Below are positions 3,616-20,027 of a stretch of DNA of 20,767 nucleotides, piece after piece. Below the pieces are notes generated by a model that ran no database searches, was not told the DNA's origin, and saw nothing but the letters and a program-made list of their open reading frames with translations. Within the stretch, counting starts at the first letter, position 1. Each line of letters starts with the position of its first letter. Source of the DNA: a virus (taxonomy: Duplodnaviria > Heunggongvirae > Uroviricota > Caudoviricetes); the IMG/VR virus record IMGVR_UViG_2547132272_000014. One strand, given 5' to 3'. The translations under genes were made by a program, and so were the position numbers.

Positions 3616-4650
3616 ATGAGCGACACAACGATCCTGCAAAACAGTACCCATGTCATTAAACCAAAAAAATCTGTGGCACTTTCTGGCGTTCCGGCGGGTA
3701 ACACCGCGCTTTGTACCGTAGGCAAAAGCGGCAACGACCTGCACTATCGCGGCTACGATATTCTCGATCTCGCAGAACATTGCGAATTTGAAGAAGTGGC
3801 GCATCTGCTGATCCACGGCAAACTGCCGACCCGTGACGAACTCGCCGCTTACAAAACGAAACTGAAAGCCCTGCGCGGTTTACCGGCTAACGTGCGTACC
3901 GTGCTGGAGGCTTTACCTGCGGCGTCGCACCCGATGGATGTTATGCGCACCGGCGTTTCCGCGCTCGGCTGCACGCTGCCGGAAAAAGAGGGGCACACCG
4001 TCTCCGGCGCGCGGGATATTGCCGACAAACTGTTGGCGTCGCTGAGTTCGATTCTTCTCTACTGGTATCACTACAGCCACAACGGCGAACGCATCCAGCC
4101 GGAAACCGATGACGACTCTATCGGCGGTCACTTCCTGCATCTGCTGCATGGTGAAAAGCCGTCGCAAAGTTGGGAAAAGGCGATGCAAATTTCGCTGGTG
4201 CTGTACGCCGAGCATGAGTTTAACGCCTCCACCTTTACCAGCCGGGTGATTGCGGGCACCGGCTCTGATATGTATTCAGCCATTATCGGCGCGATTGGTG
4301 CACTGCGCGGGCCGAAGCACGGCGGGGCGAATGAAGTGTCACTGGAGATCCAGCAACGCTACGAAACGCCGGACGAAGCCGAAGCGGATATCCGCAAGCG
4401 CGTGGAAAACAAAGAAGTGGTGATTGGTTTTGGCCATCCGGTTTATACCATCGCCGACCCGCGCCATCAGGTGATCAAGCGTGTGGCGAAGCAGCTCTCG
4501 CAGGAAGGCGGCTCGCTGAAGATGTACAACATTGCCGATCGCCTGGAAACGGTGATGTGGGAGAGCAAAAAGATGTTCCCCAATCTCGACTGGTTCTCCG
4601 CTGTTTCCTACAACATGATGGGCGTTCCCACCGAGATTGTGGGGTGGTGA
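3616..4650 (+). pseudogene. prpC: 2-methylcitrate synthase prpC, 3'-truncated by prophage insertion
   Basis: Translation matches PrpC (citrate synthase family) through ...[13 protein letters not shown]. As I recall it, intact PrpC continues MFTPLFVIARVTGW... for about 45 more residues; here the frame reads IVGW-stop, encoded by the first bases of the prophage end. Chromosome/prophage junction is at 4637/4638. Confidence 0.75.
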
Positions 4651-4800
4651 TCAATTCTGGGCGGAGTTCGTGCAGCCTGGTAGAACCTGCAAGCCTTGTG
4701 TGGCGCGGGGTGTGGTGATTTAGTGTGATTCTGGGCGGATTTGTGAGAAATGACCAAAAACGCTTTTTTTTGCGCTTTTTTCTGGGCGCTTTTGATCTGG
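4645..4800 (+). repeat. Left-end array of three direct repeats, candidate transposase-binding sites (analogous to Mu L1-L3)
   Basis: TTCTGGGCGG at 4655-4664 and 4729-4738, and TTCTGGGCGC at 4780-4789; the first two sit in longer matching contexts GGTGAT...ATTCTGGGCGGAnTTnGTG. Offsets of about 18, 92 and 143 bp from the terminus resemble the Mu attL layout. Confidence 0.5.
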
Positions 4801-4949: not shown

Positions 4950-5600
4950 TTATGCTGATTTCTTGTTTACAGGCTTCGTTTCTTGCTCCGGCGTGGCAAC
5001 GGTCTGACCACCTGGCGACCTAGCTCGTATATGAGATTCGATGCGGCGCAAAATCTCTTTGTCAATTTCTTCGTTACCATCTAATGCCATACATATGGCG
5101 TCTTTTAGCGATTCCCTGATGTTCAGGCTTCTGATGGCATTCTCCTGTTCGTCTAGGTCGTTGTAGGCCTGTTTCGCTTGCCTGGTGGGTTGTTGTAGGC
5201 GTTCCAGGACTCCTTTGATACCAATACAACAAAGCATATCAATAAGACGCTCTCTATCTTCTGGAGCGGCTCGTCTTAGTATTTCGTCAACAATACTTGT
5301 ATCGGGGCGGTTAACGTCTTCTGTAGTCACCCTTGATTTTTCTACCATTGGAACACTTCTGTTCTCACCGTAGACCAGCCATTCCAGTGATACATTCTCT
5401 AATTTTGCTATTGTAGCGACCACATTTAGGCCAGGTGTCGTGCCTTTTTCAAAGTAGTTATTTATGGTCGAGTACGGTAATCCCCAGTCTGAGGTGGCTT
5501 TACGCAGGCTCCTGGTGCCAATCAGTTGTTTGATTCTGTCTTGAATGCTTTCTTTTCTATCCTGAGAAAAGGAAAAATCATCAGCGATTTGTTTACTCAT
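4950..5600 (-). CDS. Prophage repressor candidate, N-terminal HTH (XRE/CI-like), 216 aa
   Basis: Minus-strand ORF divergent from ner; AGGA upstream of ATG 5600 on the minus strand; N-terminal segment LRKATSDWGLPYSTINNYFEKGTTPGLNVVATIAKLENVSLEWLVYGE looks like a CI/C2-type helix-turn-helix; no obvious S24 peptidase motif in the C-terminal half. Confidence 0.6.
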   Translation of the reverse strand: MSKQIADDFSFSQDRKESIQDRIKQLIGTRSLRKATSDWGLPYSTINNYFEKGTTPGLNVVATIAKLENVSLEWLVYGENRSVPMVEKSRVTTEDVNRPDTSIVDEILRRAAPEDRERLIDMLCCIGIKGVLERLQQPTRQAKQAYNDLDEQENAIRSLNIRESLKDAICMALDGNEEIDKEILRRIESHIRARSPGGQTVATPEQETKPVNKKSA

Positions 5601-5768: not shown

Positions 5769-6005
5769 ATGATGGTTAGAAATGAAGTAATGAACAAAGA
5801 CTGGCACCGCGAGTACATCGTTGCCGCTGTGCACACCAAAGGTTTTACATTGCGTGAACTTTCTGAACGCGCTGGTCTAAAAAAAGACTCTTTAAAAAAT
5901 GCACTGTATCGCTCATGCCCTAAATATGAACGCATCATAGCCGATGCTATTGGTGTGGAACCTGCGGAGATCTGGCCAAGCCGGTATGCCAGTAAGGCGG
6001 CGTAA
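5769..6005 (+). CDS. ner: Ner-like DNA-binding protein (Mu Ner / Nlp family), 78 aa
   Basis: ORF track 5631..6005 trimmed to ATG 5769 (AAGGG at 5757-5761); sequence KDWHREYIVAAVHTKGFTLRELSERAGL...IIADAIGVEPAEIWPSRY resembles Mu Ner (…DWHRADVIAGLKKRKLSLSALSRQFG…IWPSRY, from memory). Confidence 0.75.
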   Translation: MMVRNEVMNKDWHREYIVAAVHTKGFTLRELSERAGLKKDSLKNALYRSCPKYERIIADAIGVEPAEIWPSRYASKAA

Positions 6006-8047
6006 TGTTTTATTCAGCCAATGAGCTGGCCGGTCTTCCTGGTTTGCCCGGTACAGTTCAGGGGGTGCGCTGGACGCTCAATCGGATCACAGAGACGCAC
6101 CCAGAATGGAAGCGCAAGCGCGAAGGCACCAAAGCATTCGAGTATCACATCGACTGCCTGCCCGCTGAAGCGCAGAAAGTTTTACGTAAGCGCCTGACTC
6201 ATCAGGTCCTGGAAGATGCACAACTGCCCGCCGTAGTTGAGCAGAAAGCAGTTAAAAACGTCGCCGTTCGCGATGAACTGGAGGTGATGGTCAAATGCCC
6301 GGAGCTGGCATTACGCGAAGTCCAGTCACTGACCGACAAGCAAAAGGCCATCGCTGATGCGCGGATATTGCTGGCTACTGAAGTGCATAAGCTGCGCGAG
6401 TATGCCGGAATGACCAGGAAGGCCGCTTTAAAGCACATCGTTGATGGTGTGCGCATGGGGGCGTTACCTGACCGCATTATCGAAGCAGCGAATACTGCAA
6501 ATGCACGTCAGGGAAAGCGAACCGGTGTCAGCACCGGCAGCCTGGATAGCTGGTACTCCAGCTGGGTGATGGCGCGCGGTGATGCCAATCAGTTACTGGC
6601 GTTACTGGCTCCCGGTCATCATAAGGGAACACCGTGGGAGCAGGTCTGGTGGTTGAGCGATTTCTTTATGTTCTATCGCTCATGGAAGCGCCCGACTGTT
6701 GAATATGCGTATCGTGAGTTTTCAGCCTGGTGGCATGAAAAACACGCGAATGATGCGGGAATGCTGGCGGCACTGCCTTCAGTTCACGCAGTAAGACGGG
6801 TGTTAAGCAGCGTCCCGGTGATTGTTAAAGAGCGTTTCCGCTCCACCGGTTCAGCCTGGCGTTCGCTCAATCCCTTTGTGCGGCGCGACTGGACATCATT
6901 ACCGGTTAATGCGGTATGGGTCGGGGATGGTCACTGTATGAAAATGACCGCGTTTAACCCCCTGACCGGCAATATTTTCCGGCCAGAAGTGACGCTGGTT
7001 ATGGATGCGGGGCAACGCTTTGTTGTGGGCTGGTCACTGTCCCTGTCGGAGAACGTGATAGCTGTTGCTGATGCGTTGCGTTACGGCATGGCACAGCACG
7101 GGATACCGCTGATTTATTACTCCGATAACGGGGGCGGCGAAAAAAACCGGGTGCTTGATGCCGATATTACCGGGATTCTGCCCCGTCTGGGTGTGGAACA
7201 TCACACGGGGATACCAGGTAACCCGCAGGGGCGCGGGGTGATTGAACGGGCAAACAAAGGAATACCCAAAGACGTGGCTCTGAGTTTCCAGACGTACTGC
7301 GCAAGGGATGCAGACAAGGAAACCGTAATGATGCAGCAACGGATTATGCAGTCAGCCATTAAGGCCACCCACAAAGGGAAAGAGCTGACAAAACGGCAGG
7401 TTAAGGCGAGGGATGAAATCCCTACCTTTGAGCAACTGATGGCAGCCATAGAGCTGGAGGTCAGACGCTATAACAACCGGCCACACAGCAGCCTTCCTCG
7501 CAAAGAGGATGGCGAATATTACAGCCCGGCAGCGTATCGCCGGAAACTGATAAAAGAGCAAAAGGCTGAAATCGACATGCTGTCGCCGGAAGAACTGCAT
7601 GAAATGTTCAGACCGGAAGTGACGCGCAAAACATTTCGCGGGGAAATTCAGTTATTCAACAATATTTATTACTCATATGAGCTGGCCGCAGAGCACGGGA
7701 ATGAAGTCAGGGTCAGTTACGATATTCATGATGCAAACAGCGTCATTGTCCGGCGGGCTGATGGCTCTTATATCTGCGATGCCATCTGGAACGGTAACAA
7801 GGTTGATGCCTTCGCTAAACCAGTTATCGAGCAAAAACTGGAGAAACGCGTCAGGGGCCGCATTGCACGGGCCACGCAGAAAATCGAAGAAGCTAAACGC
7901 GAGCTTACCCCGGCCATTACGCAGAAGCCTGACTTTAATCTGGGATATGGACTGGAGCGCCCGGAGAAAAAGGAAAAAGAAGAACTTTATTTATTCGCAT
8001 CTGAACGCGAACGCAATTTAAAGAAAAACGGCACAAACAACCGTTAA
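6005..8047 (+). CDS. MuA-like DDE transposase, 680 aa
   Basis: Start overlaps the ner stop (TAATG); N-terminus ANELAGLPGLP resembles the MuA N-terminus (ANLPGLPKT); candidate DDE residues in WVGDGH, YYSDNGG and GRGVIER; size and position match Mu A. Confidence 0.85.
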   Translation: MFYSANELAGLPGLPGTVQGVRWTLNRITETHPEWKRKREGTKAFEYHIDCLPAEAQKVLRKRLTHQVLEDAQLPAVVEQKAVKNVAVRDELEVMVKCPELALREVQSLTDKQKAIADARILLATEVHKLREYAGMTRKAALKHIVDGVRMGALPDRIIEAANTANARQGKRTGVSTGSLDSWYSSWVMARGDANQLLALLAPGHHKGTPWEQVWWLSDFFMFYRSWKRPTVEYAYREFSAWWHEKHANDAGMLAALPSVHAVRRVLSSVPVIVKERFRSTGSAWRSLNPFVRRDWTSLPVNAVWVGDGHCMKMTAFNPLTGNIFRPEVTLVMDAGQRFVVGWSLSLSENVIAVADALRYGMAQHGIPLIYYSDNGGGEKNRVLDADITGILPRLGVEHHTGIPGNPQGRGVIERANKGIPKDVALSFQTYCARDADKETVMMQQRIMQSAIKATHKGKELTKRQVKARDEIPTFEQLMAAIELEVRRYNNRPHSSLPRKEDGEYYSPAAYRRKLIKEQKAEIDMLSPEELHEMFRPEVTRKTFRGEIQLFNNIYYSYELAAEHGNEVRVSYDIHDANSVIVRRADGSYICDAIWNGNKVDAFAKPVIEQKLEKRVRGRIARATQKIEEAKRELTPAITQKPDFNLGYGLERPEKKEKEELYLFASERERNLKKNGTNNR

Positions 8048-8065: not shown

Positions 8066-8959
8066 ATGAGTTTAATTACGCAATTAAATGACGTAATGGC
8101 CCGTCGCGGCTATACGCAAACCCACGTCGCCCGTGCTATTGGTCGTAGCAGCGCCGTTATCAACCAGTATTTACAGGGTAAATATCAGGGCGATATGGCT
8201 GATATTGAAGAACGCATTTTCGCCTTTGTGACCCGTGAGCGGGAAAAGGAAAACAGCCGCCGTATTAAAGCGAAATTTGTTGCCACCGGTATGGCTGCCA
8301 AAGGACTGGAGGTGTTGGCCTATGCTCACCTGGAATGTGAAATCTGCGTACTGTATGGCGCGGCAGGTCTTGGCAAAACAATGATTCTGCGTGAATACGC
8401 CGCCAGAAACCGGGATGCGGTCCTGATTGAAGCCGACCCGGGCTATACAGCCAGAACACTGCTTGAGGAGCTGTGCCGCCAGCTGGGGGTAAAAGTTCGC
8501 GGCAATATCCACGAACTGATTGATGCATGTGTGCGAGAACTGCGTGATTCCGGTCGCCTGCTGATGGTGGACGAGGCTGAACTGCTCCCCTATCGCGCAC
8601 TGGAGGTTCTGCGCCGTCTGCATGACAAAGCGGGTATCGGGATTGTCCTGGCGGGTATGCCACGCCTTCTGATTAACCTCAAGGGACGTCGCGGTGAGTT
8701 CGCCCAGTTATACAGCCGTGTGGCGCTGGCGCTTAACCTGGGCGATACGCTGGCGCAGGAAGATTTTAACCAGATAGCCACCGGGCTGATGCCGGAAGCA
8801 GCAGAACCGGAAATCAGCGAGGCGCTTTACGTACGCTCGCTGGGTAATGCCCGCCGCCTCTTCAAACTGGCGCGCGGTGTGTACCGGATTTGTGATATCA
8901 GCGATGCACCGGTCAGTGTGCAGGCCATTGATAAATTCGCAGAAATGTTAATTCACTGA
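8066..8959 (+). CDS. MuB-like AAA+ ATPase (transposition target DNA activator), 297 aa
   Basis: N-terminal HTH-like segment, Walker A GAAGLGKT, Walker B-like LLMVDEAE; immediately downstream of the transposase as in Mu. Confidence 0.75.
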   Translation: MSLITQLNDVMARRGYTQTHVARAIGRSSAVINQYLQGKYQGDMADIEERIFAFVTREREKENSRRIKAKFVATGMAAKGLEVLAYAHLECEICVLYGAAGLGKTMILREYAARNRDAVLIEADPGYTARTLLEELCRQLGVKVRGNIHELIDACVRELRDSGRLLMVDEAELLPYRALEVLRRLHDKAGIGIVLAGMPRLLINLKGRRGEFAQLYSRVALALNLGDTLAQEDFNQIATGLMPEAAEPEISEALYVRSLGNARRLFKLARGVYRICDISDAPVSVQAIDKFAEMLIH

Positions 8960-13483: not shown

Positions 13484-13563
13484 TTCACCACATTGAGCAA
13501 ATAACAATCAAGCGCAGACCAAAACATATGTTTTGGTCTGCCAAAAGTAGTGTTTTGGTCATT

Positions 13564-14643: not shown

Positions 14644-15111
14644 ATGCAGACCTTCAGTGAAACAGATCTTCGCGATGCGCAGGCACTGCTGCCCGACTCC
14701 GTGCAGCAACTGATTAGCGTGATTGGCTTCCCCGCCCTGACCCGGTTGATTCGTTCTTTTGGTGGCGTGACGTTAAGCGGTAAAACCGGCGCACACGCTG
14801 AACGCACCGGCGGCGTCCATGCCCTGTTACATGATGTGCTGACCGAAGACGAAATCAACAAACTGATCCGCTTTCTTGGCGGTGCTCCGTTTTACATTCC
14901 CCGTTGCGATCATGCGTTACGTGCCCTGCGTAACACCCGTTTTATGGCTGATTTACAGCGGCATATCAGGGACGGATTCTCACACCGGCAGGCGCTGGCA
15001 CTGCTCTGTCCCCGCTACGGGATTTCAGATCGGTACGCATGGCAGCTGATACACCGACGACAAAAACAGACTTCGCTGAAAAGCCCCACCCAGGTGGGGC
15101 TTTTTGATTAA
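14644..15111 (+). CDS. mor: Mor/C-family transcriptional activator, 155 aa
   Basis: GGAG at 14631-14634; C-terminal region LGGAPFYIPRCDHALRALRNTRF...LALLCPRYGISDRYAWQLIHRRQ matches the Mor/C pattern (GG.VYIP ... YG.S...VY.I..R); positioned after the early terminator as mor is in Mu. Confidence 0.65.
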   Translation: MQTFSETDLRDAQALLPDSVQQLISVIGFPALTRLIRSFGGVTLSGKTGAHAERTGGVHALLHDVLTEDEINKLIRFLGGAPFYIPRCDHALRALRNTRFMADLQRHIRDGFSHRQALALLCPRYGISDRYAWQLIHRRQKQTSLKSPTQVGLFD

Positions 15112-15426: not shown

Positions 15427-15613
15427 TCCATCCAGATAATCAACCTGCTGGGGGTGCTGAACACCCCCAGCAGTACCCACCACACCAGACCGTTTACCCT
15501 GTCCACTCAGACCACAAGGCACCTTAAGGGATAGCGCCCTGCAAAAGGCTTTTGTGCCTTTGACAGGGTGTTATTTACGGGCCGTCAGTGGCTCAGATTT
15601 ACAGGAGAAACTC

Positions 15614-16891: not shown

Positions 16892-17098
16892 GTGAGCATT
16901 ATCAGATTTACAGAATACAGAGGTTCAGGAGGTGCTGGCGCTGTCATGGTGCTTGCTGAACGCATCACCCATTTTTACCGCCAGTACGGTACACATGATG
17001 GCACTGTCATTGAACTGGATACCGGGAAAAACGTGTTTGTTCTTGAAAATCCCGACGAAGTTCAGCGCAGGATTGAACAGGCTCAGAAGGACACTTAA
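16892..17098 (+). CDS. Hypothetical protein, about 68 aa, start uncertain
   Basis: ORF track 16856..17098 starts at a GTG inside the upstream gene; GTG 16892 is an alternative; no family recognised. Confidence 0.25.
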   Translation: MSIIRFTEYRGSGGAGAVMVLAERITHFYRQYGTHDGTVIELDTGKNVFVLENPDEVQRRIEQAQKDT

Positions 17099-17598
17099 TG
17101 GCGTGGTCACAGGATATCAGGGACAAAGTCCGTAACGGGTACATCTTTGACCAGCTTCCGCTGGATATCGTCGCCATGAAGTACGCCGTGCCGCACGACA
17201 CCGCGCGGCGCTGGAAAACGCAGGCGATGAAGAACGGCGACGACTGGGACAAGCTGCGGGCCGCGCACGCGCTCGCCGGTGACGGGCTGGAAAGTGTCGC
17301 CCGCACCGTGCTTATCAGTCTGGTGGTGAAGTGTCAGACGACACTTGAACGGCTGAACCAGAACCCGGACATCCCGCCGCAGGAGTCCGTCGAACTGCTG
17401 GCGAGTCTGTCCGACAGCCTCAGTAAGGCGGTGGCCAGTAGCAAAAAAATCCTGCCGGAAACCGACCGGCTGGCCACGGCACTGGAAGTGGTGCAGCGGC
17501 TCGGCGCGTTCATCAAGGAGCGTCACCCGGCACAGTATGCCCCGTTTCTTGAGGTGCTCGAAGGCTTCGCTAAAGAGCTTGAGGATAATTTCAGTTAA
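17098..17598 (+). CDS. Mu gp27-like protein (DUF1804-like), putative small terminase subunit, 166 aa
   Basis: Start overlaps the upstream stop (TAATG); N-terminal HTH-like region; position two genes upstream of the large terminase as in Mu; family assignment from memory. Confidence 0.5.
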   Translation: MAWSQDIRDKVRNGYIFDQLPLDIVAMKYAVPHDTARRWKTQAMKNGDDWDKLRAAHALAGDGLESVARTVLISLVVKCQTTLERLNQNPDIPPQESVELLASLSDSLSKAVASSKKILPETDRLATALEVVQRLGAFIKERHPAQYAPFLEVLEGFAKELEDNFS

Positions 17599-17644
17599 CC
17601 ACAGCGGCCCGGTTTTCCGGGCCGTCTGATATTCGGGATTTGTA

Positions 17645-18385
17645 ATGCAAAAACAGATTATTGGTAACGCAACGTTGTATTGCGGTGATGTTCTTGATGT
17701 GCTGCCAGCGTTATCTGAACGTTTTGATGCCGTCATTACCGACCCGCCTTACAGCAGTGGTGGCACACACAAATCAGACCGCAGCATGGCCCCTTCGGAC
17801 AAGTATGTCGGTCACACTCAGTATGCCGAGTTCACCGGCGATAACCGCGACCAGCGCAGCTGGGCGTTCTGGTGTTCCATGTGGATTTCTCATGCATTGC
17901 ACAGGCTGAATCCCGGCGGTTATTTCATGGTGTTCAGTGACTGGCGACAACTACCGGCGCTTACCGATGCATTTCAGGCCGGTGGTGTGCTGTGGCGCGG
18001 TCTGGTTGTCTGGGATAAAACGCTTGCTTCCCGTGCGCCACACACCGGCTATTTCCGGCATCAGGCCGAGTATGTGGTCTGGGGCAGTAACGGAAAACTC
18101 GACAAATGCCCGCACGGTGGCCCGTTCCCGGGTGTGATTACGCAGCGTGTTGTCCCGTCCGAAAAACTTCACATGACCGCAAAGCCGGTTCAGCTGATGG
18201 CCGAGCTGGTTAAACCGCTGGCACCGGATGCGCACGTTCTCGATCCGTTTATGGGAAGCGGCACCACCGCCATCCCTGTACTTGCCCGTGGCGGACGGTT
18301 TACCGGCATTGAAATGACTAACCAGTATTTTGATATCGCCTGCGCACGTCTCGAAAAAGCGCAGGCAGAAGCAGCGCAGGTGTGA
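17645..18385 (+). CDS. DNA methyltransferase (N6-adenine or N4-cytosine, beta-class motif order), 246 aa
   Basis: Catalytic motif IV DPPY (VITDPPYSSGG) near the N-terminus and AdoMet motif I FMGSGTT near the C-terminus; no adjacent restriction endonuclease gene. Confidence 0.8.
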   Translation: MQKQIIGNATLYCGDVLDVLPALSERFDAVITDPPYSSGGTHKSDRSMAPSDKYVGHTQYAEFTGDNRDQRSWAFWCSMWISHALHRLNPGGYFMVFSDWRQLPALTDAFQAGGVLWRGLVVWDKTLASRAPHTGYFRHQAEYVVWGSNGKLDKCPHGGPFPGVITQRVVPSEKLHMTAKPVQLMAELVKPLAPDAHVLDPFMGSGTTAIPVLARGGRFTGIEMTNQYFDIACARLEKAQAEAAQV

Positions 18386-18386
18386 C

Positions 18387-20027
18387 GTGGCAAAACGTAA
18401 ACTTTCCATTAAAGAGTTTCAGAGAAGCCTGCAGGAGTACATCGCCAACCTCCGCCAGACCATCGAGGCTGAATGTCTGGGGTTCGATGTTAACCCGCAG
18501 GCCACACAGGCCCGCCGGGCGGCAGTCTGTGACCCGGTGACGGGCTACGATTATTTTGTCGAAAACTATTTCCCGCATTACGTCCGCAACCCGGCAAAAA
18601 GTGAGCTGCATAAATACCTGTTCAGCCGTCTGCCACAGGTTGTGGCAAGCCCGGACCCGGAGAACGACGCCATCGCCGCCCCCCGTGGTGAAGCAAAATC
18701 CACGCTGGTGACGCAGCTGTTTACCCTGTGGAACATTATCCGGGCCATTAAGCATTACCCGGTCATCATTATGGACAGTATCGACCAGGCTTATCCGATG
18801 CTGGAAGCCATCAAGGCTGAACTGGAATTTAACCCCCGTTTAAAAAACGATTTCCCGGAAGTGTGCGGACAGGGGCGTGTCTGGCGTATGGGGACCATCG
18901 TCACGGCCAACAATATCAAGGTGACCGTTGCCGGTAGTGGTAAAAAACTGCGTGGTCTGCGCCACGGTCCGTACCGTCCTGACCTGGTCATCCTCGACGA
19001 CATCGAGAACGACGAGATGGTGCGTAACCCGGAGCAGCGCGACAAGCTGCATGACTGGCTTACCAAAACCGTGATGCCGCTGGGCGAGGCTGGCGGTAAA
19101 ACCGATATTATTTATATCGGAACCATCCTGCATTACGACTCCGTGCTGTCGCGCACACTCAATAACCCGATGTGGAAAACAGCCCGCTTTAAGGCTGTTA
19201 TTCAGTGGCCTGCCAACATGAAGCTGTGGGACGAGTGGGAAGAACTCATCCGCAATAAACAGCCGGAAGCGGCGGAGGCACTTTACCGACAGAACGAGGC
19301 TGAGATGCTCGCCGGGTCGGTGGTGTCATGGGCGGCGCGTCCCCTGCTGGCGCTGATGAAAATCCGTGTCCGTGATGGTCACGACACCTTTGATTCTGAA
19401 TACCAGAACGACCCGGTCAGCGGTGAAGATGCGCTGTTTGCGGGCTGCATTAAATTCTGGGTTAACCGTCTTGATGAATGGGTGTTTTATGGTGCTGTTG
19501 ACCCCAGTCTCGGGAAGAAGAATAAAAACCGTGACCCGTCGGCCATTCTCGTGGGGGGCTTTAACCGCTTTACCGGCATTCTGGATGTGGTTGAAGCCGA
19601 TATCCGCCGACGTCTGCCGAATAAACTTATCGAAGACGTGATTAAGTATCAGCGGGAATATCACTGCCTGTGCTGGTCGTTTGAGTCCGTCCAGTTTCAG
19701 GAGTTTCTGCGTACCGTGCTGGTTGAGCGTTCGGCGGCGCTGGGCGTGCCGGTTCCGGCGCTGCCGGTCATCCCGCTGGAGGATAAGGCGCTGCGCATTG
19801 AGTCCCTTCAGCCGCATATGGCCAACGGCCTGATTCGTATCAGTCACACACATCAGACACTGATTGACCAGCTGCGCCACTACCCCAAAGCTGACCACGA
19901 TGATGGCCCGGACTGTTTGCACATGCTGTGGACGCTGGCGGTTTCGCGTAGCGCAAAATTTCAGATTCACACCCCACGCAGCACCGGGCGTGACCGTGGC
20001 GGGCGTTTTGGTTCAGGAGGATGGTAA
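18387..20027 (+). CDS. Terminase large subunit (Mu gp28-like), about 546 aa, start uncertain
   Basis: P-loop-like APRGEAKST in the N-terminal ATPase region and acidic nuclease-type motifs (VDPSLGK, HDDGPD) in the C-terminal region; no in-frame ATG before the P-loop, so the start is GTG 18387 or TTG 18330. Confidence 0.7.
   Translation: MAKRKLSIKEFQRSLQEYIANLRQTIEAECLGFDVNPQATQARRAAVCDPVTGYDYFVENYFPHYVRNPAKSELHKYLFSRLPQVVASPDPENDAIAAPRGEAKSTLVTQLFTLWNIIRAIKHYPVIIMDSIDQAYPMLEAIKAELEFNPRLKNDFPEVCGQGRVWRMGTIVTANNIKVTVAGSGKKLRGLRHGPYRPDLVILDDIENDEMVRNPEQRDKLHDWLTKTVMPLGEAGGKTDIIYIGTILHYDSVLSRTLNNPMWKTARFKAVIQWPANMKLWDEWEELIRNKQPEAAEALYRQNEAEMLAGSVVSWAARPLLALMKIRVRDGHDTFDSEYQNDPVSGEDALFAGCIKFWVNRLDEWVFYGAVDPSLGKKNKNRDPSAILVGGFNRFTGILDVVEADIRRRLPNKLIEDVIKYQREYHCLCWSFESVQFQEFLRTVLVERSAALGVPVPALPVIPLEDKALRIESLQPHMANGLIRISHTHQTLIDQLRHYPKADHDDGPDCLHMLWTLAVSRSAKFQIHTPRSTGRDRGGRFGSGGW

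Follow-up and report, generated by a model that had tools for sequence, protein, structure and literature searches.

A DNA methyltransferase gene placed among the packaging genes of a Mu-like prophage, with a GC-rich hairpin shortly ahead of its start codon, raises the question of what the enzyme does for the phage and whether the hairpin governs its synthesis. A preliminary description of this locus proposed a stand-alone enzyme, consistent with an anti-restriction or epigenetic cargo gene, and a hairpin that could act as an attenuator or translational control element, loosely analogous to the Com-dependent control of Mu mom. These claims were followed up computationally in the window, that is, the whole analysed stretch of 20,767 nt, which holds the left 16 kb of the prophage, and in related prophages.

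The prophage is inserted in prpC of a host flank, prpR-prpB-prpC, whose identity of ~91.5% to E. coli suggests that the host is a different Escherichia species. At the left prophage end prpC is interrupted, E. coli homology stopping at 4637 and the ORF at 3616-4650 being truncated. Near this end (window 4637-4760) the repeat ATTCTGGGCGGA(G/T)TT(C/T)GTG occurs twice, at ~4652 and ~4728, and the two copies are probably transposase-binding repeats of the element end. The features needed for the argument are the following.

4950-5600, minus strand: CI-type repressor gene
6005-8047, plus strand: Mu-type transposase (MuA)
8066-8959, plus strand: MuB-like ATPase
between the MuB-like ATPase and the Mor-family activator, plus strand: DUF3164 and GemA genes
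14644-15111, plus strand: Mor-family activator
past the Mor-family activator and before the DUF1804 gene, plus strand: two holins and an M15 endolysin
17098-17598, plus strand: DUF1804 gene, 166 aa (PF08822, E 2.8e-52; PHROG 756, E 1.8e-67)
17605-17624, plus strand: perfect 8-bp all-GC hairpin, CGGCCCGG-TTTT-CCGGGCCG (from sequence and folding)
17645-18385, plus strand: solitary beta-class DNA methyltransferase, 246 aa (Pfam, PHROG, PADLOC, model fold)
18378-18389, plus strand: junction of the methyltransferase and TerL genes (from sequence)
18387-20027, plus strand: TerL gene with a GTG start (PHROG 38, E 2.8e-143; TIGR01630, E 4e-25)

The matches of the last gene to PHROG 38 and TIGR01630 establish the large terminase that had been expected downstream of the methyltransferase. 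The gene upstream had been called small-terminase-like; it does stand where a small terminase subunit would be expected, but its product is a DUF1804 protein (PF08822) unrelated to Mu gp27. Homology to gp27 was considered and rejected, as gp27 belongs to PF11985 and a blastp comparison of the two gave E 0.57. The DUF1804 protein is 50% identical to D3112 orf24, annotated as 'DNA-binding protein', and its nearest phage relatives are found in Pseudomonas D3112-like phages at ~50% identity. Its gene has a GC3 of 76.6% vs 51-65% in the neighbouring genes, and this composition hints that the module with the DUF1804 gene may be of different origin.

The methyltransferase itself is well defined. Residues 33-36 of its translation read DPPY and residues 201-207 read FMGSGTT, and the protein matches Pfam PF01555 (N6_N4_Mtase) at E 7.6e-24 with 85.3 bits. 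Membership in PF01555 was defined by the curated Pfam cut-off of 26.7 bits together with motif IV (D/S-PP-Y/F) standing ahead of the AdoMet motif I (FxGxG); the score exceeds the cut-off and the motifs occur in this order, which confirms the beta class. Matches to PHROG 67 (E 8e-54) and PADLOC MTase_II (E 6.8e-64) agree, and D33, P34, P35, Y36, F202, G204 and S205 show no variation across 37 homologs. The AlphaFold model (pLDDT 83.1, pTM 0.84) has the fold of solved beta-class DNA methyltransferases: Foldseek returned M.BceJIV, CcrM and M1.HpyAVI at probability 1.0 and TM ~0.65-0.74, the matches 8urk, 6pbd, 5hfj, 1g60 and 1nw6 having E values of 1e-15 to 1e-11 at probability 1.0. A sequence search of the PDB gave M.BceJIV, M1.HpyAVI, CcrM and M.MboIIA, the M1.HpyAVI alignment covering the protein almost end to end. 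The beta-class enzyme with DPPY followed by FMGSGTT that had been recognized from the letters is thus borne out by family, profile and fold. The protein is also 100% identical to WP_001171801.1 ('DNA-methyltransferase' in RefSeq) of E. coli B1172.

As for the base that is modified, DPPY, as opposed to SPPY, is typical of m6A enzymes, and the motif favours N6-adenine as the probable target; the homologs carry adenine-specific annotation. PF01555 takes in N4-cytosine enzymes too, and the Foldseek matches also include the m4C enzymes 8s9m and 1boo. An assignment of the target sequence through the solved relatives was rejected, because identities of only ~21-24% to enzymes of known specificity do not allow a recognition sequence to be transferred. 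A search of the literature on WP_001171801, on the specificity of BPP-1 Bpm and on methylomes of Mu-like prophage methyltransferases found nothing specific.

Among the alleles of the gene, four (L037, L039, L045 and L046) carry a dense patch of 12-15 substitutions within residues 64-109. In L037, L039 and L045 the DUF1804 and TerL flanks are still ~97-99% identical, while L046 is more diverged throughout. The patch looks like a short gene-conversion tract, judging from this distribution of substitutions. A change of specificity was considered for it and rejected, as the patch lies in the core helix and strand past motif IV, outside the recognition domain.

The enzyme has no recognizable nuclease partner. 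Its neighbours are DUF1804 and TerL, and Pfam and PADLOC scans of the prophage ORFs in the window detected no nuclease domain. The window does not reach the right-hand part of the analysed prophage; for that part, the lack of a nuclease is judged from the complete E. coli B1172 counterpart, ~98% identical over the region, in which no endonuclease, mom or com gene is annotated and whose right end stops past the tail-fibre genes. The methyltransferase is therefore solitary, as had been claimed from the window, and an endonuclease elsewhere in the prophage, which would make this a conventional restriction-modification pair, is not annotated in the full-length counterpart either; a type II restriction-modification system was accordingly rejected, no endonuclease gene being paired with the methyltransferase gene. 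Com was sought in two further ways. A tblastn search with three Com proteins, which themselves match PF10122, gave best E values of only 0.04-0.5 in the window, L001 and L008, and no small ORF with a CxxC...CxxC pattern was found in the window, L001 or L008, the full E. coli prophage included.

The distribution of the gene was surveyed in 5426 complete E. coli genomes, 55 of which have the prophage region at 95-99% identity. The methyltransferase is present in 35 of these 55, where the region is fully covered, and absent in ~20, where query coverage is only 56-61% and falls into two pieces. In an alignment of the window with three E. coli prophages that lack the gene (96-98% identical), the hairpin and its tail TCTGATATT are retained and the difference is confined to one segment:

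~17634 to ~18373, plus strand: segment present or absent among prophages, replaced by TGTATAC when absent

Prophages that have the segment accordingly show 788 nt from the DUF1804 stop to TerL, those that lack it 52 nt, and both states are seen among IMG/VR contigs. Prophages without the methyltransferase encode a 100% identical DUF1804 protein and a ~98-99% identical TerL. Two metagenome-derived viral contigs, IMG/VR UViG_3300026224_000011 (L027) and UViG_3300003337_000001 (L030), are identical to the window over DUF1804, the methyltransferase and the first 1500 nt of TerL. A megablast search of the region against a phage collection gave no match.

Methyltransferases in the same slot were also found in Intestinirhabdus (L009), Buttiauxella (L010) and the IMG/VR contigs L047, L049 and L050, at 75-79% identity. 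The DUF1804 proteins of these Intestinirhabdus, Buttiauxella and IMG/VR relatives are 75-78% identical, and since the divergence of the methyltransferase parallels that of DUF1804, the gene is an old resident of the lineage that has been lost or swapped out repeatedly. The majority of DUF1804-bearing relatives have no methyltransferase at all, and what lies between DUF1804 and TerL in them differs widely, as listed by the length of the gap.

-1 nt: relatives L057-L059
44 or 52 nt: the hairpin alone
134 nt: one ORF of 48 aa (Mannheimia phage)
210 nt: a further gap length
470 nt: small ORF on the reverse strand
527 nt: D3112 orf25, reverse strand
788-830 nt: methyltransferase
1110 nt: lipoprotein-like ORF, hairpin and methyltransferase
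1232 nt: two small genes and methyltransferase, without the hairpin

The DUF1804-TerL junction is thus a variable accessory-gene slot, ranging from -1 to 1232 nt in relatives, and it emerges as such in both Mu-like and D3112-like phages. Some of its other occupants can be described briefly. D3112 orf25 (L005, 3003-3539) is a 178-aa reverse-strand gene without a Pfam match, the lipoprotein-like ORF of L047 (~1920-2213) encodes ~97 aa, and L050 (3500-3990) and L056 (3500-3980) hold small ORFs, in each case including one on the reverse strand.

The hairpin was found exactly where it had been reported, 20 nt ahead of the methyltransferase ATG. It begins 6 nt past the TAA of DUF1804, so that it occupies the 46-nt intergenic region of the two genes, and is followed by the T-rich tail TCTGATATT at 17625-17633. 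Folded with a further closing G-U pair (22 nt) it has a free energy of -19.4 kcal/mol. When the window was shuffled with dinucleotides preserved, only 7.5% of the shuffles contained a perfect 8-bp stem made up of GC pairs at any position, and the pattern GGCCCGG-N3-6-CCGGGCC appeared in 0 of 100; the hairpin is no chance feature. Other long perfect palindromes, with 11-12-bp stems, are present at 13514-13541, 15079-15104 and 15445-15473 of the window, and of these three the Mor-like gene has one at its 3' end, while another stands shortly ahead of the holin gene. Altogether ~11 distinct perfect hairpins of at least 8 bp were counted in the window, with 2.1 expected from shuffles.

Whether this hairpin is a switch for the methyltransferase can be judged from where it occurs. 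A methyltransferase-specific translational switch, or an attenuator of the Com/mom kind, would fit its closeness to the ATG, its position immediately before the methyltransferase also in L009, L010, L047 and L046, and the pairing of the P2-like phage homologs with Com. However, the hairpin is kept, directly before TerL, in relatives that have no methyltransferase (L002-4, L028, L031-35, L044 and the more diverged L048), and it is missing from L050, which does have the gene. Moreover, the weak Shine-Dalgarno sequence of the methyltransferase (GGGA, 17635-17638) starts 10 nt past the hairpin end, and both it and the AUG at 17645 lie outside the structure, with ensemble unpaired fractions of ~0.51 and ~0.66, respectively. 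A stem-loop hiding the Shine-Dalgarno sequence or the start codon was rejected on these grounds, the hairpin ending before both. The hairpin is a backbone element, independent of the methyltransferase, and a control element specific to this gene, as had been suggested, is highly improbable. Nor does the analogy to Com and mom apply to this methyltransferase, because neither the window nor the full E. coli prophage contains a Com gene and no structure sequesters the ribosome-binding site. The term attenuator may still hold in a general sense, given the look of a weak intrinsic terminator, but it would describe the phage backbone and not the methyltransferase.

What the backbone hairpin does instead may be read from its own features. 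Its GC stem (8-9 pairs) is that of an intrinsic terminator, and the tail is T-rich in all lineages; the window tail TCTGATATT is interrupted, with 4 of the 8 bases next to the hairpin being T, and is not called by the terminator scan. In the version without the methyltransferase, the scan calls the hairpin on the plus strand, with 9 pairs and the tail CTGATATTTG. The tails of other relatives read TTTCACTATTT, TTTACTCTTT, ATTTCATTT and TTGTTCATT. We therefore put forward, as a tentative proposal with a real chance of being right, that the hairpin closes the lysis/DUF1804 block, acting either as an intrinsic terminator that leaks or by stabilising the transcript 3' end.

The main alternative is that the palindrome acts as DNA, either as a binding site for a protein, for example the DUF1804 protein, or as a recombination joint of modules, and here the conservation pattern can be read both ways. 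The window, L009, L010 and L048 have the same arms, GGCCCGG/CCGGGCC, L047 having one substitution in the 5' arm (AGCCCGG), and RNAalifold on seven hairpin variants recovered seven core pairs with zero compensatory change, MAFFT having misplaced the loop gaps; as the seven core pairs never vary, covariation speaks neither for nor against an RNA structure. Such invariance of both arms over diverged lineages would suit a DNA site, as would the boundary of the variable segment, which is only 9 nt away. But the loops differ in length and sequence across relatives (TTTT, TCTT, ACTC, AACGT, ACAA, TTCT), so that the spacing of half-sites would vary, the G-to-T variant of L036 and L038 keeps RNA pairing as a G-U pair while breaking the DNA palindrome, and the T-rich tail stands behind the hairpin in every lineage. 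A role at the DNA level is therefore considered unlikely, and the terminator or 3'-end hairpin is our best reading. A search of Rfam with the whole window at gathering thresholds, and with 17400-17800 at E up to 1, gave only a noise match (E 0.48).

At its other end the methyltransferase gene is joined closely to TerL. The TerL Shine-Dalgarno sequence AGGTG (18378-18382) lies inside the final methyltransferase codons, the methyltransferase stop TGA occupies 18383-18385, and the TerL GTG follows at 18387-18389, the start given in RefSeq being 2 nt past the stop. The junction sequence CAGGTGTGACGTG is also present in prophages without the methyltransferase, and CAGGTGTGAC-GTG, comprising the TerL Shine-Dalgarno sequence and start codon, is common to both forms. 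The final two methyltransferase codons and the TGA therefore fall within the backbone, in the stretch that provides the TerL ribosome-binding site. Because the methyltransferase stop lies inside this site, no terminator stands downstream of the methyltransferase, and the two genes are probably translationally coupled. Upstream, no sigma-70-like promoter was found on the plus strand from 14614 to the window end, and all genes from the holin gene through TerL are co-directional and tightly spaced. From this lack of a promoter-like site and from the close co-directional genes, we infer that the methyltransferase would be transcribed late, together with the packaging genes, and not while the repressor acts. 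A moron, with its own promoter and its own terminator, was considered and rejected, as neither was found for the methyltransferase; only the presence/absence polymorphism is moron-like.

Based on these observations, we propose the following course of events. In the lysogen, the repressor would keep the methyltransferase silent. After induction of the late genes, it would be transcribed by read-through of the late lysis/packaging operon; there the hairpin in the RNA may terminate transcription in part or stabilise the transcript 3' end, but it takes no part in controlling the methyltransferase gene. Ribosomes ending at 18383-18385 would stand 1 nt off the TerL GTG, a position suited to termination/re-initiation coupling. 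The enzyme would thus be made at packaging time and could methylate replicated phage DNA ahead of packaging, and the virions would reach the next host pre-protected against those restriction enzymes that are blocked by the methylation. Methylation shortly before packaging fits both the accepted anti-restriction role of phage methyltransferases, which are thought to guard against restriction, and the pattern of Mu-like prophages without mom, which have adenine methyltransferases in its stead (PMC5778455, PMC3091744, PMC3299994). Of the two functions that had been offered for the gene, anti-restriction is accordingly the best reading. Taken together, a slot-resident solitary methyltransferase of an enterobacterial Mu-like prophage, made late with the packaging genes and serving anti-restriction, next to a hairpin that belongs to the backbone, is what we regard as the probable account of this locus.

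The other of the two functions, epigenetic cargo, supposes that the methyltransferase is expressed from the prophage in lysogenic conversion and alters the host methylome and gene expression. A solitary enzyme residing in a slot that also takes up further cargo, for example the lipoprotein-like ORF of L047 and the reverse-strand D3112 orf25, would be in keeping with it. It is nevertheless disfavoured because no promoter-like site stands before the methyltransferase, the 46-nt intergenic region being filled by the hairpin; furthermore, the gene is co-oriented with the late operon and abuts the TerL ribosome-binding site, its homologs are either Com-gated or located within lysis cassettes, and M.EcoGII, a prophage enzyme likewise of the beta class, is silent in the lysogenic state (PMC5778455). 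We regard cargo as improbable. It might also be supposed that the phage needs the enzyme for its own packaging or replication, which would explain the place beside the terminase gene. The pac site of phage P1 requires Dam methylation, and here the gene immediately adjoins TerL, to which it is probably translationally coupled; yet ~20 of the 55 E. coli genomes have the prophage without the methyltransferase and with near-identical DUF1804 and TerL, and most DUF1804-bearing relatives likewise do without it, which makes a requirement of this kind, suggested by analogy, very improbable.

A variant of the anti-restriction reading concerns specificity. The enzyme is compact, with 246 aa and an M1.HpyAVI-like architecture that leaves little room for a recognition domain, and it could have relaxed or near-absent specificity and take the place of Mom in a Mu-like lineage devoid of both mom and com, although we think this unlikely. 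If it were so, toxicity would be contained purely by the position in the late operon and the coupling to TerL, without a Com switch, the hairpin would set the amount of read-through that reaches the methyltransferase, and a relaxed or non-specific enzyme could also serve as a tool. Irrespective of specificity, the near-isogenic natural prophage pairs with the methyltransferase (as in strain B1172) and without it (as in strains like Z1323CEC0014 or UMNF18) offer a clean test of what the gene protects against.

Solitary phage methyltransferases are already well known as a defence against restriction, and the gene itself adds little to that knowledge; it is its setting that is instructive when compared with known systems. 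In Mu, com-mom likewise provides a late DNA modification in a transposable phage that protects from restriction. However, Mom is an unrelated enzyme, the present prophage family has neither mom nor com, and the present hairpin leaves the ribosome-binding site unsequestered. Hia5, Hin1523 and Nma1821 are non-specific adenine methyltransferases that Mu-like prophages without mom carry in its stead (PMC3299994), but these are of the alpha class, Dam-like, with FxGxG before DPPY, and lie at the mom position behind Com (PMC3299994); for Hia5 and Hin1523 the alpha-class, Dam-like nature is also given in PMC5778455. Membership in the Hia5/Hin1523 family was rejected, since the present enzyme is of the beta class, has another position and no Com, and is set apart by the family description (PMC3299994). 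The methyltransferase ORF48 of the Mu-like phage B3, also located behind Com, shows no similarity to the present protein. M.EcoGII of E. coli O104:H4, a non-specific enzyme, resembles it in being prophage-borne and of the beta class, with DPPY, recognition domain and FxGxG in this order (PMC5778455), and differs in having 349 aa vs 246 aa, a comparison made by description only (PMC5778455). With M.BceJIV (GTWWAC), CcrM (GANTC) and M1.HpyAVI (GAGG) the fold is common, but sequence identity is only ~21-24%.

The nearest phage homologs are the methyltransferases of Escherichia phage Chuche (54% identical) and Bordetella phage BPP-1 (Bpm, 53% identical), both over 94% of the length. They are equally of the beta class (PF01555/PHROG 67), compact, phage-borne and without an endonuclease partner, but they occupy a different genomic slot, the present gene being flanked, in a Mu-like phage, by DUF1804 and TerL. 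No target sequence of this Chuche/BPP-1 subfamily was found in the literature. Pairs of Com and a methyltransferase of the same family (46-58% identity) occur in P2-like elements, namely Chuche, Smp131, Burkholderia KS5, the E. coli P2-like prophage L065 and the Acidovorax loci L014-L016. In these P2-like pairs the Com zinc-ribbon gene (PF10122) precedes or overlaps the methyltransferase 5' end, the Com genes next to family methyltransferases scoring E 1e-11 and 6e-20 against PF10122, whereas no Com gene was found in the present prophage. As family methyltransferases are Com-coupled in P2-like phages, the analogy to Com drawn in the preliminary description has a real echo in the family, even though it fails for this member. 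The Com-paired enzymes share the late, gated expression and the presumed anti-restriction role proposed here (PMC3091744), except that in the present prophage it would be the place of the gene within the late operon that does the gating. The family also occurs in another ~190 E. coli genomes, with two different placements: the P2-like prophage of E. coli KOr024 (L065) has a Com gene overlapping the methyltransferase 5' end, and in another prophage, of E. coli 2013C-3033 (L066), the methyltransferase stands directly between a holin gene and the M15 endolysin gene. One methyltransferase family is thus met in three regulatory settings, coupled to Com, placed between holin and endolysin, and fused onto the TerL ribosome-binding site.
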